Below are positions 3,339 to 54,714 of a stretch of 64,000 nt of DNA, in pieces; the first letter of the stretch is position 1, and every line of letters begins with the position of its first letter. Made by a program: the position numbers and the translations under genes. The notes under the pieces were generated by a model that was given only the letters and a program-made list of their open reading frames with translations, was not told the origin of the DNA and made no database searches. The DNA is from Escherichia coli (GTDB lineage: Bacteria > Pseudomonadota > Gammaproteobacteria > Enterobacterales > Enterobacteriaceae), in NCBI RefSeq assembly GCF_009931435.1, contig NZ_CP043414.1; one strand, given 5' to 3'.

Positions 3339-4046
3339 TCAGGCAAACCAGGCGGTCCAGGCGGCGGAAAGCGGCATTGCCAGAAGCAATGCTGGAAGCA
3401 TGTTGACCACCGGGAACATTTTAATGCCACAAATGCGTAATCCGGTTGCCAGCAGCAATAAACCGCCTACAGCGCTGAAGTCTGCCATCATCGACGGTGT
3501 GGTCAGCGGTAATATCAGCGCGGCAGCCCACGCCAGCGTTAACTGGATGATCAGTAATGGGATACTAATTACCGACACCGCAATACCCAACGAGCAGGCG
3601 AAGATCATCGCCGTAAAGAAATCGAGAAATGACTTGGCGATTAAAATACTCGGATCGCCGGTCATCCCTTCGTTCATCGCCCCGAAGATCCCGGTGCCGC
3701 TGGCGCAAAACAGGACAATAATCGCGACATAATTCTGAATAAAAGATTCATGCGCTGGCTTCTTACGTGAGTGGCGAAACAGATTTTGCGCTTTGGCGAC
3801 CACTGTATTGACGCCTTTTTCCAGCAGACAAATTTCGCCAATTAGAGCGCCAAGTAGCGTAGCTAAAACCATCGCTGGAAGGTTGGCGCATTTCACCACC
3901 AGTAAAATACCAATCCCCAGCGATGCCAGACCAAAAATAGATGTCATGGAAACGCGGATACGTTCCGGTAAACGTTGGCTGAGCAGAGCGCCGATAACGC
4001 CACCCAGTAAGACTGCACTCGCGTTGATAAAAGGGCCGATGACCAC
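3339..4046 (-). CDS. yqgA: Inner membrane protein YqgA (DUF554 family)
   Basis: 235 aa polytopic membrane protein; length and position between pheV and speC as in K-12. Confidence 0.85.
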   Translation of the reverse strand: MVIGPFINASAVLLGGVIGALLSQRLPERIRVSMTSIFGLASLGIGILLVVKCANLPAMVLATLLGALIGEICLLEKGVNTVVAKAQNLFRHSRKKPAHESFIQNYVAIIVLFCASGTGIFGAMNEGMTGDPSILIAKSFLDFFTAMIFACSLGIAVSVISIPLLIIQLTLAWAAALILPLTTPSMMADFSAVGGLLLLATGLRICGIKMFPVVNMLPALLLAMPLSAAWTAWFA

Positions 4047-4438
4047 AAGAGTTCCTGTTAACTGTATTGTTTGATTTTCTTATTATGAACTTTTTGCCTT
4101 GTTGATGGCTTGTTTGGTCGCAAAGTCCTGGCTTGCACGCTTTAGCGAAAGGTGCCATGATTGCGCGAATTTTCTCCTCTCTGTACGGAGTTTGCCCGAT
4201 GCACGCCACCTCCTTACATTCTCTCGCTTATCGCCGTTTCGCGCGAAACTCCTCCCTTTTTCTGCTCATGCGGTGAAGTTAACGCACGCTCACTGCAGGA
4301 CAACAGTAAAATCAGAGCGTTTCTGCTTTTACTGATGTCTGGCGGTCGGAGCTGGTGACCAGTTTGACCCATATCTCGTGGGGCAGGGTTTTTCACCTTG
4401 TCCGGTATTCTTACTTCCCCGAAACGGGTTTTGCGCTT

Positions 4439-45581: not shown

Positions 45582-46859
45582 ATGAAAACCAAAGTTGTTG
45601 CTATTTATGGCAAGCGGGATGTCCGTCTGCGCGAATTTGAACTGCCCAAAATTACCGATAATGAACTGCTGGTGAGTGTAATTTCTGACAGTGTGTGTTT
45701 ATCGACCTGGAAAGCGGCGTTACTCGGTAGCGAACATAAACGCGTGCCCGACGATTTAGAAAATCATCCGGTCATTACCGGGCATGAATGTGCCGGGATT
45801 ATTGTTGAAGTGGGGAAAAATCTTACCGACAAATATAAAAAAGGCCAACGTTTTGTATTGCAACCGGCGATGGGGCTACCAAGCGGGTATTCTGCGGGAT
45901 ACAGCTACGAATATTTTGGCGGTAACGCCACCTATATGATTATTCCAGAGGTAGCCATTAATTTGGGCTGCGTATTACCGTATCACGGATCTTATTTTGC
46001 TGCGGCGTCGCTGGCAGAGCCGATGTGCTGCATTATTGGCGCTTATCATGCCAATTATCACACCACGCAATATGTTTATGAGCATCGCATGGGCGTCAAA
46101 CCTGGCGGCAATATTGCGCTGCTGGCGTGTGCGGGCCCGATGGGGATAGGCGCTATCGATTACGCTATTCACGGCGGCATACAACCGTCGCGGGTAGTGG
46201 TGGTCGATATCGACGACAAACGCCTGGCACAGGTGCAGAAGCTGCTGCCGGTGGAGCTGGCGGCCAGCAAAGGCATTGAGCTGATATATGTGAATACCAA
46301 AGGAATGGCCGATCCGGTACAGAAGCTGCGGGCGCTGACAGGAGATGCTGGGTTCGATGACATTTTTGTTTATGCGGCGGTGCCTGCTGTCGTTGAGATG
46401 GCTGACGAATTACTGGCGGAAGATGGCTGCCTGAACTTCTTTGCCGGGCCGACGGATAAAAACTTCAAAGTGCCGTTTAATTTCTACAACGTCCATTACA
46501 ACAGCACGCACGTCGTCGGTACATCGGGTGGTTCAACGGACGATATGAAAGAGGCGATTGCCCTGAGCGCCACGGGGCAGTTGCAACCGTCGTTTATGGT
46601 GACGCATATCGGTGGCCTGGATGCAGTGCCAGAAACCGTTCTCAATTTACCGGATATCCCCGGTGGTAAAAAACTCATTTACAACGGCGTTACCATGCCG
46701 CTCACCGCCATTGCCGATTTTGCCGAAAAAGGCAAAACCGATCCGCTGTTTAAAGAGCTGGCGCGGTTAGTTGAGGAAACGCACGGCATCTGGAATGAAC
46801 AGGCCGAGAAATATCTGCTGGCACAATTTGGCGTTGATATCGGGGAGGCCGCGCAATGA
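45582..46859 (+). CDS. yggP: Zinc-type alcohol dehydrogenase-like protein YggP
   Basis: 425 aa MDR-family protein; position after cmtA. Confidence 0.8.
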   Translation: MKTKVVAIYGKRDVRLREFELPKITDNELLVSVISDSVCLSTWKAALLGSEHKRVPDDLENHPVITGHECAGIIVEVGKNLTDKYKKGQRFVLQPAMGLPSGYSAGYSYEYFGGNATYMIIPEVAINLGCVLPYHGSYFAAASLAEPMCCIIGAYHANYHTTQYVYEHRMGVKPGGNIALLACAGPMGIGAIDYAIHGGIQPSRVVVVDIDDKRLAQVQKLLPVELAASKGIELIYVNTKGMADPVQKLRALTGDAGFDDIFVYAAVPAVVEMADELLAEDGCLNFFAGPTDKNFKVPFNFYNVHYNSTHVVGTSGGSTDDMKEAIALSATGQLQPSFMVTHIGGLDAVPETVLNLPDIPGGKKLIYNGVTMPLTAIADFAEKGKTDPLFKELARLVEETHGIWNEQAEKYLLAQFGVDIGEAAQ

Positions 46860-47821
46860 TGTCCCTGGCGTGGCCATTATTTCGCGTTACGGAGCAGGCA
46901 GCGTTGGCTGCCTGGCCGCAAACCGGATGTGGCAACAAAAATAAAATTGATGGCCTGGCGGTCACCGCGATGCGCCAGGCATTAAACGATGTCGCTTTTC
47001 GTGGGCGAGTGGTTATCGGCGAGGGAGAAATTGACCATGCGCCGATGCTGTGGATTGGCGAAGAGGTGGGCAAAGGCGATGGGCCAGAAGTCGATATCGC
47101 GGTTGATCCCATTGAAGGTACGCGGATGGTGGCGATGGGGCAGAGCAATGCGCTGGCGGTCATGGCTTTCGCCCCTCGAGATAGCCTGTTACACGCGCCC
47201 GATATGTATATGAAAAAACTGGTTGTTAATCGGCTGGCGGCGGGCGCGATTGATCTGTCTTTGCCTCTGGCGGACAACTTGCGCAACGTGGCGAAAGCGT
47301 TGGGCAAACCGCTGGACCAGCTACGTATGGTTACGCTAGATAAACCGCGCCTGAGAGCCGCAATTGAGGAAGCGACACAACTGGGCGTGAAGGTTTTTGC
47401 CCTGCCGGATGGCGATGTCGCCGCCAGCGTGCTGACCTGCTGGCAAGATAATCCTTACGACGTGATGTACACCATCGGTGGCGCGCCGGAAGGTGTTATT
47501 TCTGCCTGTGCTGTTAAAGCATTGGGTGGGGATATGCAGGCCGAGCTGATTGATTTTTGTCAGGCAAAAGGGGATTACACGGAAAATCGGCAGATTGCAG
47601 AGCAGGAGCGCAAGCGTTGCAAGGAAATGGGCGTTGACGTTAACCGTGTGTACTCGCTCGATGAACTGGTGAGGGGGAACGATATCCTCTTTAGCGCTAC
47701 GGGCGTGACGGGCGGTGAGTTGGTGAACGGTATCCAACAGACGGCGAATGGGGTGCGGACGCAGACATTACTGATCGGCGGCGCGGACCAAACGTGTAAT
47801 ATAATAGACTCCCTGCATTGA
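46856..47821 (+). CDS. yggF: Class II fructose-1,6-bisphosphatase (GlpX paralogue) YggF
   Basis: 321 aa; overlaps the yggP stop by 4 nt. Confidence 0.85.
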   Translation: MMSLAWPLFRVTEQAALAAWPQTGCGNKNKIDGLAVTAMRQALNDVAFRGRVVIGEGEIDHAPMLWIGEEVGKGDGPEVDIAVDPIEGTRMVAMGQSNALAVMAFAPRDSLLHAPDMYMKKLVVNRLAAGAIDLSLPLADNLRNVAKALGKPLDQLRMVTLDKPRLRAAIEEATQLGVKVFALPDGDVAASVLTCWQDNPYDVMYTIGGAPEGVISACAVKALGGDMQAELIDFCQAKGDYTENRQIAEQERKRCKEMGVDVNRVYSLDELVRGNDILFSATGVTGGELVNGIQQTANGVRTQTLLIGGADQTCNIIDSLH

Positions 47822-47842
47822 TGGTGATCTATCGGAAGACCA

Positions 47843-48352
47843 ATGGCGACGCTGACAGAAGATGATGTGCTTGAGCAACTGGACGCACAGGACAATTTAT
47901 TGTCATTTATGAGAACTACACATGTCATTTTGCTCCAGGGGATACGCCAGTTTCTGCCGTCGCTGTTTGTCGATAATGATGAAGAGATCGTGGAATATGC
48001 AGTGAAGCCGTTACTCGCTCAAAGCGGCCCGCTTGACGATATTGATGTTGCGCTACGTTTGATTTTTGCGCTGGGGAAAATGGACAAATGGCTGTATGCC
48101 GATATCACGCACTTTTCCCAGTTCTGGCATTACCTGAATGAACAGGATGAAACGCCCGGATTTGCCGATGACATTACCTGGGATTTTATCAGCAACGTCA
48201 ATAGCATAACCCGCAATGCGACGCTCTATGACGCGTTAAAAGCGATGAAGTTCGCTGATTTCGCCGTCTGGTCAGAGGTGCGTTTTAGTGGGATGGTCAA
48301 AACGGCGCTGACGCTGGCAGTAACGACCACCTTAAAGGAATTAACGCCGTGA
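47843..48352 (+). CDS. yggD: MtlR-family regulator YggD
   Basis: 169 aa; position between yggF and yggC. Confidence 0.8.
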   Translation: MATLTEDDVLEQLDAQDNLLSFMRTTHVILLQGIRQFLPSLFVDNDEEIVEYAVKPLLAQSGPLDDIDVALRLIFALGKMDKWLYADITHFSQFWHYLNEQDETPGFADDITWDFISNVNSITRNATLYDALKAMKFADFAVWSEVRFSGMVKTALTLAVTTTLKELTP

Positions 48353-49062
48353 AAATCGAACTGACGGTGAATGGATTGAAGGTACAGGCGCAGTACCCGA
48401 ACGAAGAGATTGAAAATGTGCATAAACCGTTGCTGCGTATGCTGGCAGCCTTACAGACGGTAAATCCGCAGCGGCGTACCGTGGTTTTTCTTTGCGCTCC
48501 GCCGGGGACGGGTAAATCTACCCTAACCACTTTCTGGGAATATCTCGCGCAACAAGACCCGGAACTACCCGCTATTCAGACGCTGCCGATGGATGGTTTT
48601 CACCATTACAATAGCTGGCTGGATGCGCATCAATTGCGCCCCTTTAAAGGCGCACCAGAGACATTCGATGTGGCAAAACTGGCGGAAAATCTGCGCCAGG
48701 TAATGGAAGGGGATTGTACGTGGCCGCAGTACGATCGACAAAAGCATGATCCTGTTGAAGATGCGTTGCACGTTACCGCACCACTCGTCATCGTCGAAGG
48801 AAACTGGTTGTTGCTGGATGACGAGAAGTGGCGCCAGCTTGCGCAATTTTGTGATTTCTCGATCTTTATCAACGCGCCAGCTACTGCGTTGCGGGAACGA
48901 CTGGTGGGGCGCAAGCTGGCGGGAGGGTTATCGCTGGCAGACGCAGAAGCCTTTTATGACCGTACCGATGGGCCGAATGTTCGCCGGGTGCTGGAAGAGA
49001 GTCTGCCTGCAAATTTGACCTTAATGATGACCGCTACGGGTGAATATCGTCTGGTGGATTAA
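48349..49062 (+). CDS. yggC: P-loop kinase-like protein YggC
   Basis: 237 aa; Walker A GTGKST (LCAPPGTGKSTL). Confidence 0.85.
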   Translation: MKIELTVNGLKVQAQYPNEEIENVHKPLLRMLAALQTVNPQRRTVVFLCAPPGTGKSTLTTFWEYLAQQDPELPAIQTLPMDGFHHYNSWLDAHQLRPFKGAPETFDVAKLAENLRQVMEGDCTWPQYDRQKHDPVEDALHVTAPLVIVEGNWLLLDDEKWRQLAQFCDFSIFINAPATALRERLVGRKLAGGLSLADAEAFYDRTDGPNVRRVLEESLPANLTLMMTATGEYRLVD

Positions 49063-49711
49063 CGTTCCTGATTACACCATCTTCCAGTCGCACCACACGA
49101 GAGAAATGACGCCGGGTAAATGCGGCGTCATGACTGATTGCTACGACGCTCGTGCCTCGCTGGCGGCACTTTTCCAGCCAGCTTTCAAACACGCTCATCC
49201 AATTTTCGTCAAAATCCCGACTCGGCTCGTCCAGCAGCAATAGCGGCGGAGAGAGTGCTTCCAGGCAGGCGACGGCGACCATCCGTCGCTGCGCACTATG
49301 CAGATCTAACGGATGCGCGCTGGCAGTGTCTGCTAACTGACAGCATTGCAGGGCAGCATTGGTACGTTGAGTGATTTCATCCGCCAGGCATTTTTGCAGT
49401 TTCAAACCAAATGCGATCTCGTCAGCGACGGTGCTGTGAAAAAGCTGGTTTTCCGCTTCCTGAAACAGTACGCCAATCTTTGCTGCACGTTGGCGGTTTT
49501 TCAGGTTTTTCATCGCCTGTTGTTGCAGCATAACCGTACCGGCTGTGGGCGTAAGAAGACCTGCCATTACTCGTAACAGCGTCGATTTTCCCGCGCCATT
49601 GTCGCCGGTCAGCGCCAACCATTCACCTTGTTTGAGTTGCAGAGAAATGTCGCAAAGACAATCCGTTGCCGCGCCAGGCCAGCGATAAGACATCTGATTT
49701 AACGTTAACAT
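49034..49711 (-). CDS. ABC-type ATPase, second ATPase of an ECF-type transporter, with degenerate signature motif
   Basis: Walker A GDNGAGKST; Walker B LLLLDEP; H-loop ISHD; signature position reads LHSAQ instead of LSGGQ. Start ambiguous: 49711 (MLTLNQMSYRW) or 49744. Confidence 0.65.
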   Translation of the reverse strand: MLTLNQMSYRWPGAATDCLCDISLQLKQGEWLALTGDNGAGKSTLLRVMAGLLTPTAGTVMLQQQAMKNLKNRQRAAKIGVLFQEAENQLFHSTVADEIAFGLKLQKCLADEITQRTNAALQCCQLADTASAHPLDLHSAQRRMVAVACLEALSPPLLLLDEPSRDFDENWMSVFESWLEKCRQRGTSVVAISHDAAFTRRHFSRVVRLEDGVIRNVNPPDDIHP

Positions 49712-50388
49712 AGTGGCTGGAGCGCTCCGTTTTGCAATTGCCACGCTTGCTGGCAGTAGTTCAGGAAAGGTGTGCGATGACGTTCAAAAAGAATAATCAG
49801 CGAACCACGTTCAAACGCCCAGTGTTGTAAGCGCTGCAACAGCATTTCGCTGGCCTGCGGCGTCAGGCGACTAAAGGCTTCATCAAGAATTAATAGTTTT
49901 GGCTGCATCGCGATGGCGCAGGCGATGACCACGCGCTGTGTCTCTCCACCGGAGAGTGTTGCCGGGTGACGATGGCGCAACGGCTGGCACTCGGTCAGAG
50001 TCAGGGCAGCATCAATCCGCGCCATAATCTCCTCTTCAGCAAGACACAGATTTTCTGGCCCAAAGGCAACTTCTTCTTCCACGCTAAAGGTACAGCCGGA
50101 GAGCTGCAAATAGGGCGATTGCTGAACGAGCTGGATGGTGGCGGATTGTTCATTAAGCGGGAGATACCCAATGGGCGTACCGAGAAGCGTCCCCGTGCCG
50201 GTTATCTCTCCTGGCAGAAAGTCCGGATACCAGCCCGCCATCAGTTGCGCCAGCGTACTTTTGCCACTGCCGTTGTCACCAAAGATGGCGACTATCCCCG
50301 GTTTGACATAGTGAAAGTCATAACAGAACGGAGGGTGCGTTGAGTGTGTCGGGCAATAGCGAAACTGTTCTAACGTAACCATATCCAC
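49705..50388 (-). CDS. ABC-type ATPase, first ATPase of an ECF-type transporter
   Basis: Walker A GDNGSGKST; Q-loop; canonical signature LSGGETQRV; Walker B LLILDEA; about 227 aa. Confidence 0.75.
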   Translation of the reverse strand: MDMVTLEQFRYCPTHSTHPPFCYDFHYVKPGIVAIFGDNGSGKSTLAQLMAGWYPDFLPGEITGTGTLLGTPIGYLPLNEQSATIQLVQQSPYLQLSGCTFSVEEEVAFGPENLCLAEEEIMARIDAALTLTECQPLRHRHPATLSGGETQRVVIACAIAMQPKLLILDEAFSRLTPQASEMLLQRLQHWAFERGSLIILFERHRTPFLNYCQQAWQLQNGALQPLC

Positions 50389-51077
50389 GCTCCGAATTCT
50401 GCCAGCATCAGCAAGATCATGGCGTAACGTGCCACTTTTTCCAGGTTACTGTCAGGCGGTGCCCATAACGTAGTGCGCCGGTTGTGGATCCGAAATGCCC
50501 GCATATCCAGCGCCGCACCACGGATAGCCAGATCGTTTAGCGCATTGTGTGTTAGCGGAATAATTAGCGCGGGTATAGCACGTAAACGCTGATACCAGCC
50601 CTCATCCAGCGGCACCCCACGGGCGCGCTGCGCTTCATGAATAATCGCTAATTGCCGTTTTAACTGCTCAACGACCAACAAAGGCCCAGCGAACAGATAA
50701 GCGACGCCCGGCGGCAGGCGAGAAGCAAACAAAGCGCGGATAAAACGTTGCACTGGGACGAATTGCATCCACAACTGCGAGGTTGAAACAATCGCCAGAA
50801 TCCGCAACCAGAGCGTAATAGCATGCGTCCACCGTTCTGGCGAGCGTGGCGTGCCGCTTAGCCATTCTGTCAGCCAGCCACCGTGTACCAGCCACAGTCC
50901 AGCCCCCAGCGAGAACATCAGCCAGACAACATATTTTACCCGCCGCCGCGTGGCCTTTAGCGCAATAAGGCAGAAAAAGGTCGCCGCGCTATAGAATGGC
51001 AGTATTGTCTGTGTGGGCAGGATAAGCGTGGTGCAGGCCGCCAGCGCCCACAGCGTTAGGGATGTAAACGGATGCAT
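50370..51077 (-). CDS. ECF transporter transmembrane T component (EcfT/CbiQ-like)
   Basis: 235 aa polytopic protein with Arg-containing coupling motif (EAQRARGVPLD); start codon abuts the stop of the upstream gene. Confidence 0.65.
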   Translation of the reverse strand: MHPFTSLTLWALAACTTLILPTQTILPFYSAATFFCLIALKATRRRVKYVVWLMFSLGAGLWLVHGGWLTEWLSGTPRSPERWTHAITLWLRILAIVSTSQLWMQFVPVQRFIRALFASRLPPGVAYLFAGPLLVVEQLKRQLAIIHEAQRARGVPLDEGWYQRLRAIPALIIPLTHNALNDLAIRGAALDMRAFRIHNRRTTLWAPPDSNLEKVARYAMILLMLAEFGAWIWLR

Positions 51078-51656
51078 TTAGCGCACGGCAGCCATTGCCG
51101 GAAAATGGCGCGTGGTGCGAATCGGCAGCTGACGCAGTAAAAGCCAGACAATCACCGCTGTAAGAATTTTATCGACCAGGTTTGCGCCTATCACCGTAAT
51201 CGCCACCGACTCCACCAGGTTTTGCCCCATAGAGTGCATCCAGGCAACGAACAAATCGGCTCCGCTACCGGTGACACCGCCGAACAGCGCAGTACGCAGC
51301 GGTACAGCGACGACCGTTACTGCAAGCGTAATAATCACGCCGCTGACAACGACTTTTGGCAGGGTGCGAAACCAACCCGCTCGCGCCAGCCAACCGGCGA
51401 CCAGGCCAATAACCATCGCCACGGGGGCAAAGGCGGCGGCGATCGGGTCGGTGAGCAATCCCCAGAGTAAATTGGTCAGTAAGCCGGTCAGCATCCCGAT
51501 CACCGGACCAAGCAGTACCGCGCTAATAAGTGTGCCGATGGAGTCGAGAAATATAGGTAATTTGACCATGCTGGCCAGTTGCCCGCCAATCATATTGATG
51601 GCGATAGAGATAACAATCAACACCAGTGCTTGACTGGAAAAGTGGCGACGCGCCAT
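51078..51656 (-). CDS. Putative ECF transporter substrate-capture S component
   Basis: About 190 aa small polytopic protein (start chosen at MARRHFSSQALVLIVISIAINMIGG; ORF extends further); LDSIGT-like motif; first membrane gene of the module. Confidence 0.5.
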   Translation of the reverse strand: MARRHFSSQALVLIVISIAINMIGGQLASMVKLPIFLDSIGTLISAVLLGPVIGMLTGLLTNLLWGLLTDPIAAAFAPVAMVIGLVAGWLARAGWFRTLPKVVVSGVIITLAVTVVAVPLRTALFGGVTGSGADLFVAWMHSMGQNLVESVAITVIGANLVDKILTAVIVWLLLRQLPIRTTRHFPAMAAVR

Positions 51657-51678
51657 AAGAAAACCTCTCTGAAAGTAG

Positions 51679-52110
51679 TTATTTAACGGGGGAAATATGC
51701 AATTCGTCGTAACCAGAAAGCGCGCAAGGTTGGCGGCTAAACGCCAGCTCCTCAAGGCAGCCGATCACCAGTTCAAGCGTGGTCCGCACGGTACAGCCGG
51801 GCATCATATGACCGCCAAGCATCGTGCCGTGTGGATCGGAAACGCAGAGATGAAGATGTTCACCACTCTGTTCCAGTGTGCCGTTCAATGCGATGACTTC
51901 GAACTTACCGCTTAGTAGGGCCGTGTTTTCTTGCCCGGCATAGCGTAAGGCGACGTCAGTCAGACTGCCGGTACAACCTGCAATCCACGCGGCGTGGAGT
52001 TGTTGTTGCTGCGCGAAGGCGCGTAATTGGGAGAGAACTTCCTGCCCTGGGAGCAGGCGCAGCGCGTAAAAGCGTGCGGAGGAAGAATATGGGTAGGGCA
52101 ATGTCATCAT
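51679..52110 (-). CDS. Small cytoplasmic protein, possibly PPC/DUF296 domain
   Basis: 143 aa soluble protein; first gene of the minus-strand operon, divergent from epd; domain call by resemblance only. Confidence 0.45.
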   Translation of the reverse strand: MMTLPYPYSSSARFYALRLLPGQEVLSQLRAFAQQQQLHAAWIAGCTGSLTDVALRYAGQENTALLSGKFEVIALNGTLEQSGEHLHLCVSDPHGTMLGGHMMPGCTVRTTLELVIGCLEELAFSRQPCALSGYDELHISPVK

Positions 52111-52481
52111 TGGAGTACTCCGAAACTCGGACGTATTGCGGATAATATCGACGCTGCATCAGTCATATTCTGATATAAGTCAGGGTTTGTGACGGCACAA
52201 CGAAAAGATTTTGCTACGCTTATTCGTGATTCTGCAAAGTGGAATAAATTCCACAGGGGCGGGGATGAAAACGTGACGTAAGTCAGATAATTGTCTTCTT
52301 TGACTGGACAATCATTCCTTTTATTCCACGTTTCGCTTATCCTAGCTGAAGCGTTTCAGTCGATTAAATGTTCGACAATTAACCAATCAGTCGCAGTTTG
52401 CGACAGGTAAGGTTTCCCCGGACGATTTGCTGGATTACTCTGTCTGGCAAATTTGCTCAGGGAAAACCTTGCAGGAGATCT

Positions 52482-53501
52482 ATGACCGTACGCGTAGCGA
52501 TAAATGGCTTCGGTCGCATCGGGCGTAATGTGGTTCGTGCTTTGTATGAATCCGGACGCCGGGCGGAAATTACCGTGGTGGCAATCAACGAACTGGCGGA
52601 TGCTGCGGGCATGGCGCATTTGTTGAAATATGACACCAGTCATGGCCGTTTTGCATGGGAAGTACGACAGGAACGCGATCAACTTTTTGTTGGTGATGAC
52701 GCCATCCGCGTATTGCATGAACGTTCACTGCAATCGCTCCCATGGCGTGAACTGGGCGTCGATGTGGTTCTCGACTGCACCGGCGTATATGGCTCCCGCG
52801 AGCATGGCGAAGCACATATTGCCGCCGGGGCCAAAAAAGTGCTCTTTTCACATCCTGGCAGTAACGATCTCGATGCGACCGTTGTTTACGGCGTCAATCA
52901 GGATCAACTTCGTGCGGAACACCGCATCGTTTCTAACGCTTCCTGTACCACGAATTGCATAATTCCCGTCATCAAATTGTTAGATGATGCGTACGGTATT
53001 GAGTCCGGCACTGTGACCACAATTCACTCCGCCATGCACGATCAACAGGTTATTGATGCATACCATCCTGACCTGCGTCGCACCCGGGCAGCCAGCCAGT
53101 CGATCATTCCGGTCGATACTAAACTGGCCGCCGGTATCACACGATTTTTTCCGCAATTTAACGATCGCTTTGAAGCGATTGCGGTACGTGTGCCAACCAT
53201 AAATGTGACGGCAATCGATTTAAGCGTGACGGTGAAGAAACCTGTAAAAGCCAATGAAGTCAACCTGTTGCTGCAAAAAGCAGCACAAGGTGCATTTCAT
53301 GGTATAGTTGACTATACGGAATTGCCGTTGGTCTCTGTAGATTTTAACCACGATCCGCACAGTGCCATTGTCGATGGCACCCAAACCCGGGTCAGTGGCG
53401 CACACCTGATCAAAACGTTGGTCTGGTGCGATAACGAATGGGGCTTTGCTAACCGAATGCTCGACACGACGTTAGCTATGGCTACTGTTGCTTTCAGGTA
53501 A
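52482..53501 (+). CDS. epd: D-erythrose-4-phosphate dehydrogenase
   Basis: ORF trimmed to [25 protein letters not shown] start (339 aa); SCTTNC active-site motif. Confidence 0.95.
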
Positions 53502-53550
53502 GACGCAAGCAGCGTCTGCAAAACTTTTAGAATCAACGAGAGGATTCACC

Positions 53551-54714
53551 ATGTCTGTAATTAAGATGACCGATCTGGATCTTGCTGGGAAACGTGTATT
53601 TATCCGTGCGGATCTGAACGTACCAGTAAAAGACGGGAAAGTAACCAGCGACGCGCGTATCCGTGCTTCTCTGCCGACCATCGAACTGGCCCTGAAACAA
53701 GGCGCGAAAGTGATGGTAACTTCCCACCTGGGTCGTCCTACCGAAGGCGAGTACAACGAAGAATTCTCTCTGCTGCCGGTTGTTAACTACCTGAAAGACA
53801 AACTGTCTAACCCGGTTCGTCTGGTTAAAGATTACCTCGACGGCGTTGACGTTGCTGAAGGTGAACTGGTTGTTCTGGAAAACGTTCGCTTCAACAAAGG
53901 CGAGAAGAAAGACGACGAAACTCTGTCCAAAAAATATGCTGCACTGTGTGACGTGTTCGTAATGGACGCATTCGGTACTGCTCACCGCGCGCAGGCTTCT
54001 ACTCACGGTATCGGTAAATTCGCTGATGTTGCGTGCGCAGGCCCGCTGCTGGCAGCTGAACTGGACGCGCTGGGTAAAGCACTGAAAGAACCTGCTCGCC
54101 CGATGGTGGCTATCGTTGGTGGTTCTAAAGTATCTACCAAACTGACCGTTCTGGATTCCCTGTCCAAAATCGCTGACCAGCTGATCGTGGGTGGTGGTAT
54201 CGCTAACACCTTTATCGCGGCACAAGGCCACGATGTGGGTAAATCCCTGTACGAAGCTGACCTGGTTGACGAAGCAAAACGTCTGCTGACCACCTGCAAC
54301 ATTCCGGTTCCGTCTGACGTTCGCGTAGCAACTGAGTTCTCTGAAACTGCACCGGCTACCCTGAAATCTGTTAACGATGTGAAAGCTGACGAGCAGATCC
54401 TGGATATCGGCGATGCTTCTGCGCAGGAACTGGCTGAAATCCTGAAGAATGCGAAAACCATTCTGTGGAACGGCCCGGTTGGCGTGTTCGAATTCCCGAA
54501 CTTCCGCAAAGGTACTGAAATCGTGGCTAACGCTATCGCAGACAGCGAAGCGTTCTCCATCGCTGGTGGCGGTGACACTCTGGCAGCAATCGACCTGTTC
54601 GGCATTGCTGACAAAATCTCCTACATCTCCACTGGCGGCGGCGCATTCCTCGAATTCGTGGAAGGTAAAGTACTGCCTGCAGTAGCGATGCTCGAAGAGC
54701 GCGCTAAGAAGTAA
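53551..54714 (+). CDS. pgk: Phosphoglycerate kinase
   Basis: ORF trimmed to [25 protein letters not shown] start (387 aa). Confidence 0.95.

Follow-up and report, generated by a model that had tools for sequence, protein, structure and literature searches.

O-island 119 beside epd in Escherichia coli: lmiA and a dedicated ECF-type importer, possibly for a nucleoside- or 7-deazapurine-type micronutrient

The 64,000-nucleotide stretch of Escherichia coli DNA analysed here (contig NZ_CP043414.1, referred to below as the window) carries a cassette of five genes between yggC and epd. The best explanation of this cassette, which we regard as probable though well short of certain, is that it is the O-island 119 (OI-119) operon, composed of the regulator gene lmiA and a dedicated group I energy-coupling factor (ECF) importer, on our best guess of a nucleoside- or 7-deazapurine-type micronutrient, and that it is ancestral at its position beside epd. 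To our knowledge the cassette encodes the only complete ECF importer of E. coli and Salmonella. Two incompatible guesses about its cargo are in circulation, queuosine precursors and cobalt, the former being the prediction made in SEED.

In the mechanism proposed here, the five genes would form an operon transcribed away from epd. LmiA, a small, acidic and probably metal-binding protein of the PPC/DUF296 family, would be activated by PhoP at low Mg2+ and would act on the LEE1/ler promoter of the enterocyte effacement locus (LEE) and on the gadA/gadBC promoters. The S component would capture the substrate within the membrane, without a periplasmic binding protein, the T component would couple the S component to the ATPases, and the two different ATPases would pair as a heterodimer, of whose ATP sites one would be canonical and the other degenerate. 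The cargo would, on our best guess, be a nucleoside or 7-deazapurine-type micronutrient from the gut, and LmiA would act together with the importer.

The transporter genes and their identity with O-island 119

Five minus-strand open reading frames (ORFs) lie between yggC and epd and span 49034-52110, in agreement with the RefSeq/PGAP calls in an E. coli genome that is 99.9% identical. In order along the window, the cassette and its flanking genes are:

48349-49062, plus strand: yggC, the convergent flank of the cassette
49034-49711, minus strand: ATP-binding cassette (ABC) ATPase 2, QrtW-type, 225 amino acids (aa)
49705-50382, minus strand: ABC ATPase 1, QrtV-type, 225 aa
50370-51077, minus strand: ECF T component, QrtU-type, transmembrane coupling protein, 235 aa
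51078-51656, minus strand: ECF S component, QrtT-type (STY3230 family), 192 aa, about 6 hydrophobic segments
51679-52110, minus strand: lmiA (ortholog of z4267), PPC/PCC (DUF296) protein, 143 aa, the first gene of the operon
start at 52482, divergent from the cassette: epd

The genes are packed as expected of a single operon: lmiA and the S gene are separated by 22 nt, the S and T genes by 0 nt, and the T gene overlaps that of ATPase 1 by 13 nt, as the latter does that of ATPase 2 by 7 nt. A longer ORF for the S component, beginning with TTG, extends to 51755, but the annotated start differs and gives the gene listed above. The 3' ends of the ATPase 2 gene and of the convergent yggC overlap by 29 nt, and at the other end of the cassette the control region shared divergently by lmiA and epd occupies 52111-52481.

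The assignment of the four downstream genes to an ECF transporter is carried by family models and by conserved motifs. The S component matches PF12822 (ECF_trnsprt) at E=1.8e-8, and the nearest solved S components are the folate-specific FolT proteins (5D0Y, E=1.6e-10). The T component matches the CbiQ family PF02361 at E=2.2e-4, and its coupling motif A149-Q150-x-x-R153-G154 (AQxxRG) is kept in 23 orthologs across phyla. ATPase 1 finds as its top NCBIfam model TIGR04520 (ECF_ATPase_1, E=9.8e-35) and has the Walker A motif GDNGSGKS, the canonical signature LSGGE and the Walker B motif LLILDE; ATPase 2 finds TIGR04521 (ECF_ATPase_2, E=1.4e-43) and has the Walker A motif GDNGAGKS, the degenerate signature LHSAQ and the Walker B motif LLLLDE. 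The signature of ATPase 2 is degenerate in every phylum examined (LHSAQ, LHAGQ, LGYSE, LTPTW and others) while ATPase 1 keeps LSGGE/Q (orthologs in loci L008-L087 of the scan described below). Because the one signature is canonical and the other degenerate, the heterodimer should possess one consensus and one degenerate ATP site, an asymmetry that would be conserved. No gene for a periplasmic binding protein is found among the five genes between yggC and epd, searches of Pfam and NCBIfam return no CbiM/NikM family match for the S component, and the cassette contains no additional small membrane gene of the CbiN type. Judged from their sequences, the four genes constitute a complete dedicated group I ECF-type importer, a membership defined by an S component, a T component and two ATPases in one operon-like cluster.

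Two observations on the wider families may be added. In Enterobacteriaceae both ATPases are 225 aa long and have 54-65 residues past Walker B, the corresponding length being about 85-119 residues in Proteus, Providencia, Rhizobiales, Chloroflexi and others and intermediate in Aeromonas (L035-L087); it thus appears that the Enterobacteriaceae proteins have lost the C-terminal extension that ECF ATPases usually carry. Domains of the S-component family also occur fused to sensor histidine kinases (P0221, P0242, P0232), which suggests that the S fold is reused there as a membrane ligand sensor, and other relatives are S-T fusions (P0153, P0170, P0171, P0178) or a tandem S protein (P0137). These fusions were considered as a source of information about cargo and proved uninformative, the relatives of 460-490 aa being S-T fusions and the others histidine-kinase fusions.

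The identity of the cassette with OI-119 of E. coli O157:H7 EDL933 (z4267-z4271) is secure, because the locus, the gene set, the protein identities and the published promoter elements all match. OI-119 has been described as a segment of 3.12 kb with the five genes z4267-z4271 (Liu et al. 2020 mBio, PMC7667037). O157:H7 genomes give a full-length DNA match at the same locus with 95.5% identity; the encoded proteins are 93.7% (PPC), 99% (S), 94% (T), and 98.7% and 97.3% (ATPases) identical, and 187 of 190 nt upstream of lmiA are the same. OI-119 thus resembles the cassette of the window in its yggC-epd locus, gene set, gene order, PhoP box, -35 element and -10 element, and differs from it as a divergent allele, with DNA identity of about 95.5% and with one mismatch in the window to the 19-nt PhoP footprint, which is exact at the O157:H7 locus.

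The sequence-only reading that preceded this analysis had described five minus-strand genes at this position, encoding a PPC-like protein, an S component, a T component and two ATPases, and both this layout and the family assignments were borne out by profile hidden Markov models (PF03479 for the first gene and those named above for the others). Its further statements, that the genes are coupled tightly enough to form one operon, that the transporter is of the ECF kind rather than a classical importer with a binding protein, that yggC and epd are adjacent in K-12 and that no mobility gene is attached, agree with what was found. Neither of the two outcomes that it had named as refuting, profile hits to a classical importer with a binding protein or the presence of the genes at this position in K-12, came about. 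It could assign no function to the pairing of such a transporter with a PPC-like protein, and in this it was out of date: the PPC gene is the published lmiA (PMC7667037, PMC11657066) and the transporter is probably the QrtTUVW of SEED. The novelty that it implied likewise does not hold, since the locus is an already named and partly characterised accessory operon. It was catalogued as an O island when O157:H7 was compared with K-12, papers of 2020 and 2024 have characterised lmiA, the transporter has its name from SEED, and each of the five products has one in RefSeq ('PPC domain-containing DNA-binding protein', 'ECF transporter S component', 'energy-coupling factor transporter transmembrane component T' and two of 'ABC transporter ATP-binding protein').

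Ancestry, cargo and the role of LmiA

The distribution of the cassette was determined by a megablast search with the whole segment against 5426 complete E. coli genomes and by a scan of related loci that took one genome per species and comprised 80 loci (designated by L numbers). The cassette is present in 3319 of the 5426 genomes (61%) and is always chromosomal, so that it is not rare in E. coli, a species in which the sequence-only reading had called ECF transporters uncommon; the synteny comparison which that reading proposed places the five genes next to epd also in Salmonella, Citrobacter, Klebsiella and further genera. About 25 Enterobacteriaceae loci have the cassette divergent to epd-pgk, several of them between epd and yggC as in the window, and the genera and species concerned include E. 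albertii, Citrobacter, Klebsiella, Kluyvera, Atlantibacter, Superficieibacter, Phytobacter, Pseudescherichia and Enterobacter. In Salmonella the order is mscS-fbaA-pgk-epd, then the five cassette genes, then tktA. Neither an integrase, a transposase, tRNA genes nor flanking direct repeats were found at the cassette or its borders, and its G+C content of 53-59% is close to that of its flanks. K-12, in which all five genes are absent and 132 nt stand in place of window positions 48994-52260, keeps a diverged remnant of the lmiA control region. Because of the shared epd site, the absence of mobility signs, the flank-like G+C and the K-12 remnant, the cassette most likely belonged beside epd in the ancestors of the Enterobacteriaceae and disappeared from K-12 and from about 39% of E. 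coli, rather than having been acquired horizontally. The contrary explanation, of a virulence island that only pathogenic E. coli possess and that arrived by horizontal transfer, can appeal to its absence from K-12, to its description as a horizontally acquired O island and to the loss of adherence in lmiA mutants (PMC7667037). It must nevertheless contend with the presence of the cassette in most complete E. coli genomes and at the same site in so many other genera, as well as with the base composition, the missing mobility genes and repeats and the K-12 remnant, and we consider it very improbable; the label 'horizontally acquired island' looks wrong.

The allele of this region in the present strain is rare, only 6 of the 5426 genomes having a cassette match of at least 99% identity. 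Identity to K-12 is 93.7% on the yggC-fumE-glpX side (46001-48993) and 98.9% on the epd-pgk side (52261-54000). In the last 23 or so codons of yggC (48994-49062) the DNA is too diverged from K-12 for BLAST alignment, while the peptides are still similar.

Beyond the Enterobacteriaceae the PPC gene remains associated with the transporter. It stands directly upstream of the S, T and two ATPase genes (S-T-A-A) in about 72 of the 80 loci and in two further genomes, which belong to the Gamma-, Beta-, Alpha- and Deltaproteobacteria, the Synergistetes and the Chloroflexi. Because of this adjacency across phyla, PPC-S-T-A-A can be regarded, on the evidence of gene order, as one ancient cassette conserved in several bacterial phyla, a conclusion which is new here. 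Most hosts of the cassette are without LEE. Some individual loci depart from the pattern: in the E. albertii type strain NBRC 107761 (L008 6269-6952) ATPase 1 is divided between two ORFs of 156 and 67 aa and is probably a pseudogene, and in Citrobacter sp. R56 (L077 4428-5579) a single ORF runs from before the expected PPC position through S, which could be either PPC fused to S or an artefact of a frameshift. The cyanobacterium Egbenema bharatensis (L088 6001-6402) has a close PPC relative near an amidohydrolase and without ECF genes, so this PPC subfamily is not strictly tied to the transporter.

The evidence about cargo comes mainly from a sister clade (L081-L087 and L091; S components 42-46% identical). 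In 7 of the 8 sister-clade loci the gene immediately upstream of S encodes a nucleoside hydrolase of the IUNH type, further neighbours are ribokinase (L082, L087) and uridine phosphorylase (L082), and L085, L084 and L091 each have a single operon that begins with PCC and continues with nucleoside hydrolase, S, T, A and A. Because nucleoside hydrolase and ribokinase adjoin the S gene of the sister clade, the cargo class that these neighbourhoods point to, which has not been proposed on this basis before, is a nucleoside or deazapurine rather than cobalt. In Chloroflexi (L061 4211-4561, L074, L079, L090 5633-5989) a small gene resembling DsrE/YedF (sulfur or selenium transfer) is directly upstream of PPC, and a related cassette in L005 ends in a gene weakly similar to 2-thiouracil desulfurase (3633-4196); these are a possible hint that the cargo consists of thio- or seleno-modified bases. 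In Kaistia terrae (L066 3225-3269) a guanidine-II riboswitch about 1.2 kb upstream of the cassette probably serves an unrelated neighbour gene.

A number of observations weigh against the proposed explanation, and in particular against a queuosine-related cargo. E. coli makes its own queuosine and already has the queuosine-precursor transporter YhhQ. The locus tags STY3230-3233, through which the SEED prediction is connected with this locus, are placed here only provisionally, by the numbering of S. Typhi. The S component reaches the CD3073-family model NF045596 at E=8.8e-40 with 136 bits, under the cutoff of 180 bits. A YhhQ-type queuosine-precursor transporter does adjoin the sister-clade cassette in L083, L084 and L086, but these are three related genomes and represent essentially one evolutionary event. 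No preQ1 or other relevant riboswitch is matched by Rfam in the window at a permissive threshold, nor is anything relevant matched at the gathering threshold in 29 diverse cassette loci, and clustering of neighbouring ORFs across 48 loci reveals no queuosine gene linked to the PPC-bearing clade and no conserved partner of that clade outside the cassette. Deletion of z4268-z4271 produced no adherence phenotype (PMC7667037). Finally, Co2+ is proposed as the cargo in a thesis, for which we rely on its citation in PMC11481890.

This last proposal leads to the alternative that the operon encodes an importer of cobalt or another metal and that PPC regulates it by sensing the metal, a role which has been proposed for Salmonella STM3071. 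It is in keeping with the three-histidine metal site of the PPC protein, with the induction of the operon through PhoP at low Mg2+ (PMC7667037), with the anaerobic activation of the Salmonella operon in an early-activation group together with the nik genes (PMC11481890), and with legacy matches of the CbiO/CbiQ type. Such CbiQ and CbiO matches, however, are common to ECF T and A subunits of every kind, the S component is of the PF12822 vitamin type with FolT nearest and finds no CbiM/NikM counterpart in Pfam or NCBIfam, the cassette lacks a CbiN-like gene, and the neighbours in the sister clade are nucleoside enzymes, not metal genes. We judge a metal importer improbable, and the nucleoside- or 7-deazapurine-type cargo remains the preferred one.

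The role of LmiA is harder to decide, since experiment and sequence features pull in different directions. LmiA has been described as a DUF296-domain protein with a proposed zinc site at His85/His87/His101, which is activated by PhoP under low Mg2+, binds the LEE1/ler promoter and regulates LEE, and whose mutants lose adherence (PMC7667037). It also binds the gadA/gadBC promoters, activates these genes and indirectly represses biofilm formation (2024 Gut Microbes, PMC11657066), and its action on the LEE1 and gad promoters has been followed by electrophoretic mobility shift assays, chromatin immunoprecipitation with quantitative PCR, DNase footprints and reporter assays (PMC7667037, PMC11657066). 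The protein in the window, for its part, is a bare PPC domain of 143 aa with an isoelectric point (pI) of 5.8 and only 8 Lys+Arg, which matches the PCC family PF03479 at E=2.7e-27 and the Salmonella structural-genomics crystal structures 2HX0 and 2NMU at E~1e-70. Among 34 orthologs (35-72% identity) 20 residues are invariant, including H85, H87, H101, E71, E113, E136, R18, R56 and R126; all 34 are acidic (median pI 5.6), and none contains an AT-hook or a helix-turn-helix. By fold comparison the PPC fold resembles the zinc enzyme acetolactate decarboxylase. Taken together, these features would suit a protein that binds a ligand or acts as a catalyst with the help of a metal no less well than they would a regulator that binds DNA.

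An alternative is that the main role of the PPC protein is not that of a transcription factor but that of an enzyme dependent on zinc, or of a partner of the importer that binds the cargo; it might, for example, make queuine or a modified nucleoside or base usable after import. The effects on regulation seen in lmiA mutants of enterohaemorrhagic E. coli would then be indirect or the result of late co-option. The adjacency of PPC and S is kept in phyla without LEE, PPC and a nucleoside hydrolase belong to one operon in the three sister-clade loci named above, the invariant histidine, glutamate and arginine positions and the uniform acidity without a recognised DNA-binding motif are as such a role would have them, and AF0104 (2H6L) bears the title 'metal-containing protein'. 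Opposed to these points are the binding, footprint and reporter data for LmiA on LEE1 and gad promoters; in addition, no ligand or activity is on record for any bacterial PPC protein, and the acetolactate decarboxylase family is not reached by the PPC sequence profile. The published regulator reading is ranked ahead, because it rests on experiments, and the enzyme or partner role, which we keep beside it, seems less likely than not. Somewhat more doubtful still is the specific conjecture that PPC/DUF296 is the missing cytoplasmic partner of a nucleoside/deazapurine ECF importer, as a His3-metal enzyme or cargo receptor that processes what is imported. If it were true, island-positive E. coli and Salmonella would salvage a gut micronutrient beyond the reach of K-12, and the virulence, acid-resistance and biofilm phenotypes of lmiA would be downstream effects or a later co-option. 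The constant company of the PPC gene and the importer in different phyla speaks for an original function of that gene in connection with transport and not with LEE regulation.

The control region between lmiA and epd

The region 52111-52481 combines the published promoter of lmiA with further elements that were recognised by aligning the epd-lmiA intergenic region from 11 genera, an alignment which contains four conserved blocks and whose readings come from conservation only. A conserved Cra-type box, ACTGAAACGCTTCAGC, presumably serves epd. The remaining elements, in the direction of lmiA transcription, are:

52272-52287, minus strand: CRP-like palindrome TCTGA-N6-TCAC(G/A), overlapping the PhoP box and conserved in 11 genera
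52268-52284, minus strand: PhoP box of the lmiA promoter, GACTTACGTCACGTTTT, published (PMC7667037); matched exactly and once in the window, against a chance expectation of 0
52232-52237, minus strand: -35 element TTGCAG of lmiA promoter P1, a published element (PMC7667037) present in the window
52208-52216, minus strand: -10 element TAGCAAAAT of P1, a published element (PMC7667037) present in the window
about 52200, minus strand: P1 transcription start, a T about 90 nt before the ATG (per PMC7667037)
52170-52183, minus strand: palindrome CTGACTTATATCAG (CTGA-N6-TCAG) of a candidate second promoter, half-sites invariant or nearly so in 11 genera
52142-52147, minus strand: TATTAT of the candidate second promoter, invariant or nearly so in 11 genera
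52117-52134, minus strand: conserved hairpin ACGUCCGAGUUUCGGAGU, including the Shine-Dalgarno sequence GGAG (52118-52121), invariant in 11 genera

The published PhoP box of lmiA is a poor match to the PhoP consensus, and in most genera the block that contains it reads TCTGA-N6-TCACA, a near-consensus palindrome of the CRP type. A diverged copy of this palindrome is retained in K-12 (L002 ~3985-4005), and because K-12 keeps it without lmiA, it may serve epd or both of the divergent promoters.

Further downstream, the segment 52142-52183 looks like a second promoter and is a candidate for one with class II FNR/CRP geometry, in which case it would explain the anaerobic activation reported for Salmonella (PMC11481890). 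The centre of its palindrome is 29.5 nt upstream of TATTAT, the pair lies downstream of the published transcription start, and the spacing of 36 nt between palindrome and TATTAT is constant in all 17 Enterobacteriaceae loci that have both the palindrome and an exact TATTATC. A scan of the window for the FNR consensus with at most 2 mismatches missed this leader palindrome, the E. coli copy of which has 3.

The hairpin over the ribosome-binding site shows one compensatory change, from A-U to G-C, in Superficieibacter. The leader was also considered as a structured RNA element or riboswitch, and this was rejected: its predicted folding energy of -6.5 kcal/mol, hairpin included, is no better than that of shuffled sequences (z=-0.41), for which reason the conserved leader motifs are read as a promoter and a ribosome-binding-site hairpin.

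As a separate observation, a sigma-54 binding site has been reported inside Salmonella STM3072, TGGCCCATTGAATGCATC (PMC3844500); its counterpart in the window (51223-51240) has 3 mismatches and has lost the GG of the -24 element.

Comparison with named systems

Among PPC proteins, the structural-genomics entries 2HX0, 2NMU, 2P6Y, 2DT4, 2H6L, 3HTN and 3HWU form the related bacterial and archaeal PPC/DUF296 set, and we know of no solved bacterial PPC protein with a demonstrated function. The plant AHL proteins bind DNA through AT-hooks, which the PPC protein of the window lacks.

With the metal importers CbiMNQO and NikMNQO the module in the window has in common the group I layout, a CbiQ-like T component and CbiO-like ATPases; it differs from them in its vitamin-type S component of PF12822, for which there is no CbiM/NikM match in Pfam or NCBIfam, and in having no CbiN-like gene.

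In Clostridioides difficile the operon queK-qrtT-queL serves queuosine salvage (Yuan et al. 2019, as reported in PMC11477304 and PMC11130926), and transport of preQ0, preQ1, queuine or queuosine is shown only for QrtT proteins of that species (PMC11130926). Compared by description, the position of an ECF S gene beside a nucleoside hydrolase in queK-qrtT is mirrored in the sister clade L081-L087 and L091, whereas the C. difficile QrtT relies on a shared housekeeping ECF module and is accompanied by a preQ1-I riboswitch and a radical-SAM queuine lyase; the module in the window is dedicated, has no riboswitch and no QueL, and has a PPC gene instead.

QrtTUVW, like the module in the window, unites in a single operon an S gene, a T gene and two ATPase genes of its own. 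The naming is said to follow Rodionov et al. 2009. The Salmonella enterica locus has the same five-gene layout beside epd with an S component that is 92% identical, and probably corresponds to STY3230-3233. The SEED roles QrtT, QrtU, QrtV and QrtW read 'STY3230-STY3233 of queuosine-regulated ECF transporter' (supplement of PMC6593275), but the clade of the window is without a preQ1 riboswitch (window and 29 loci) or a linked queuosine gene (48 loci), and the list of SEED roles omits the conserved fifth gene, PPC. The Salmonella operon is anaerobically activated and is conserved in pathogenic E. coli (PMC11481890).

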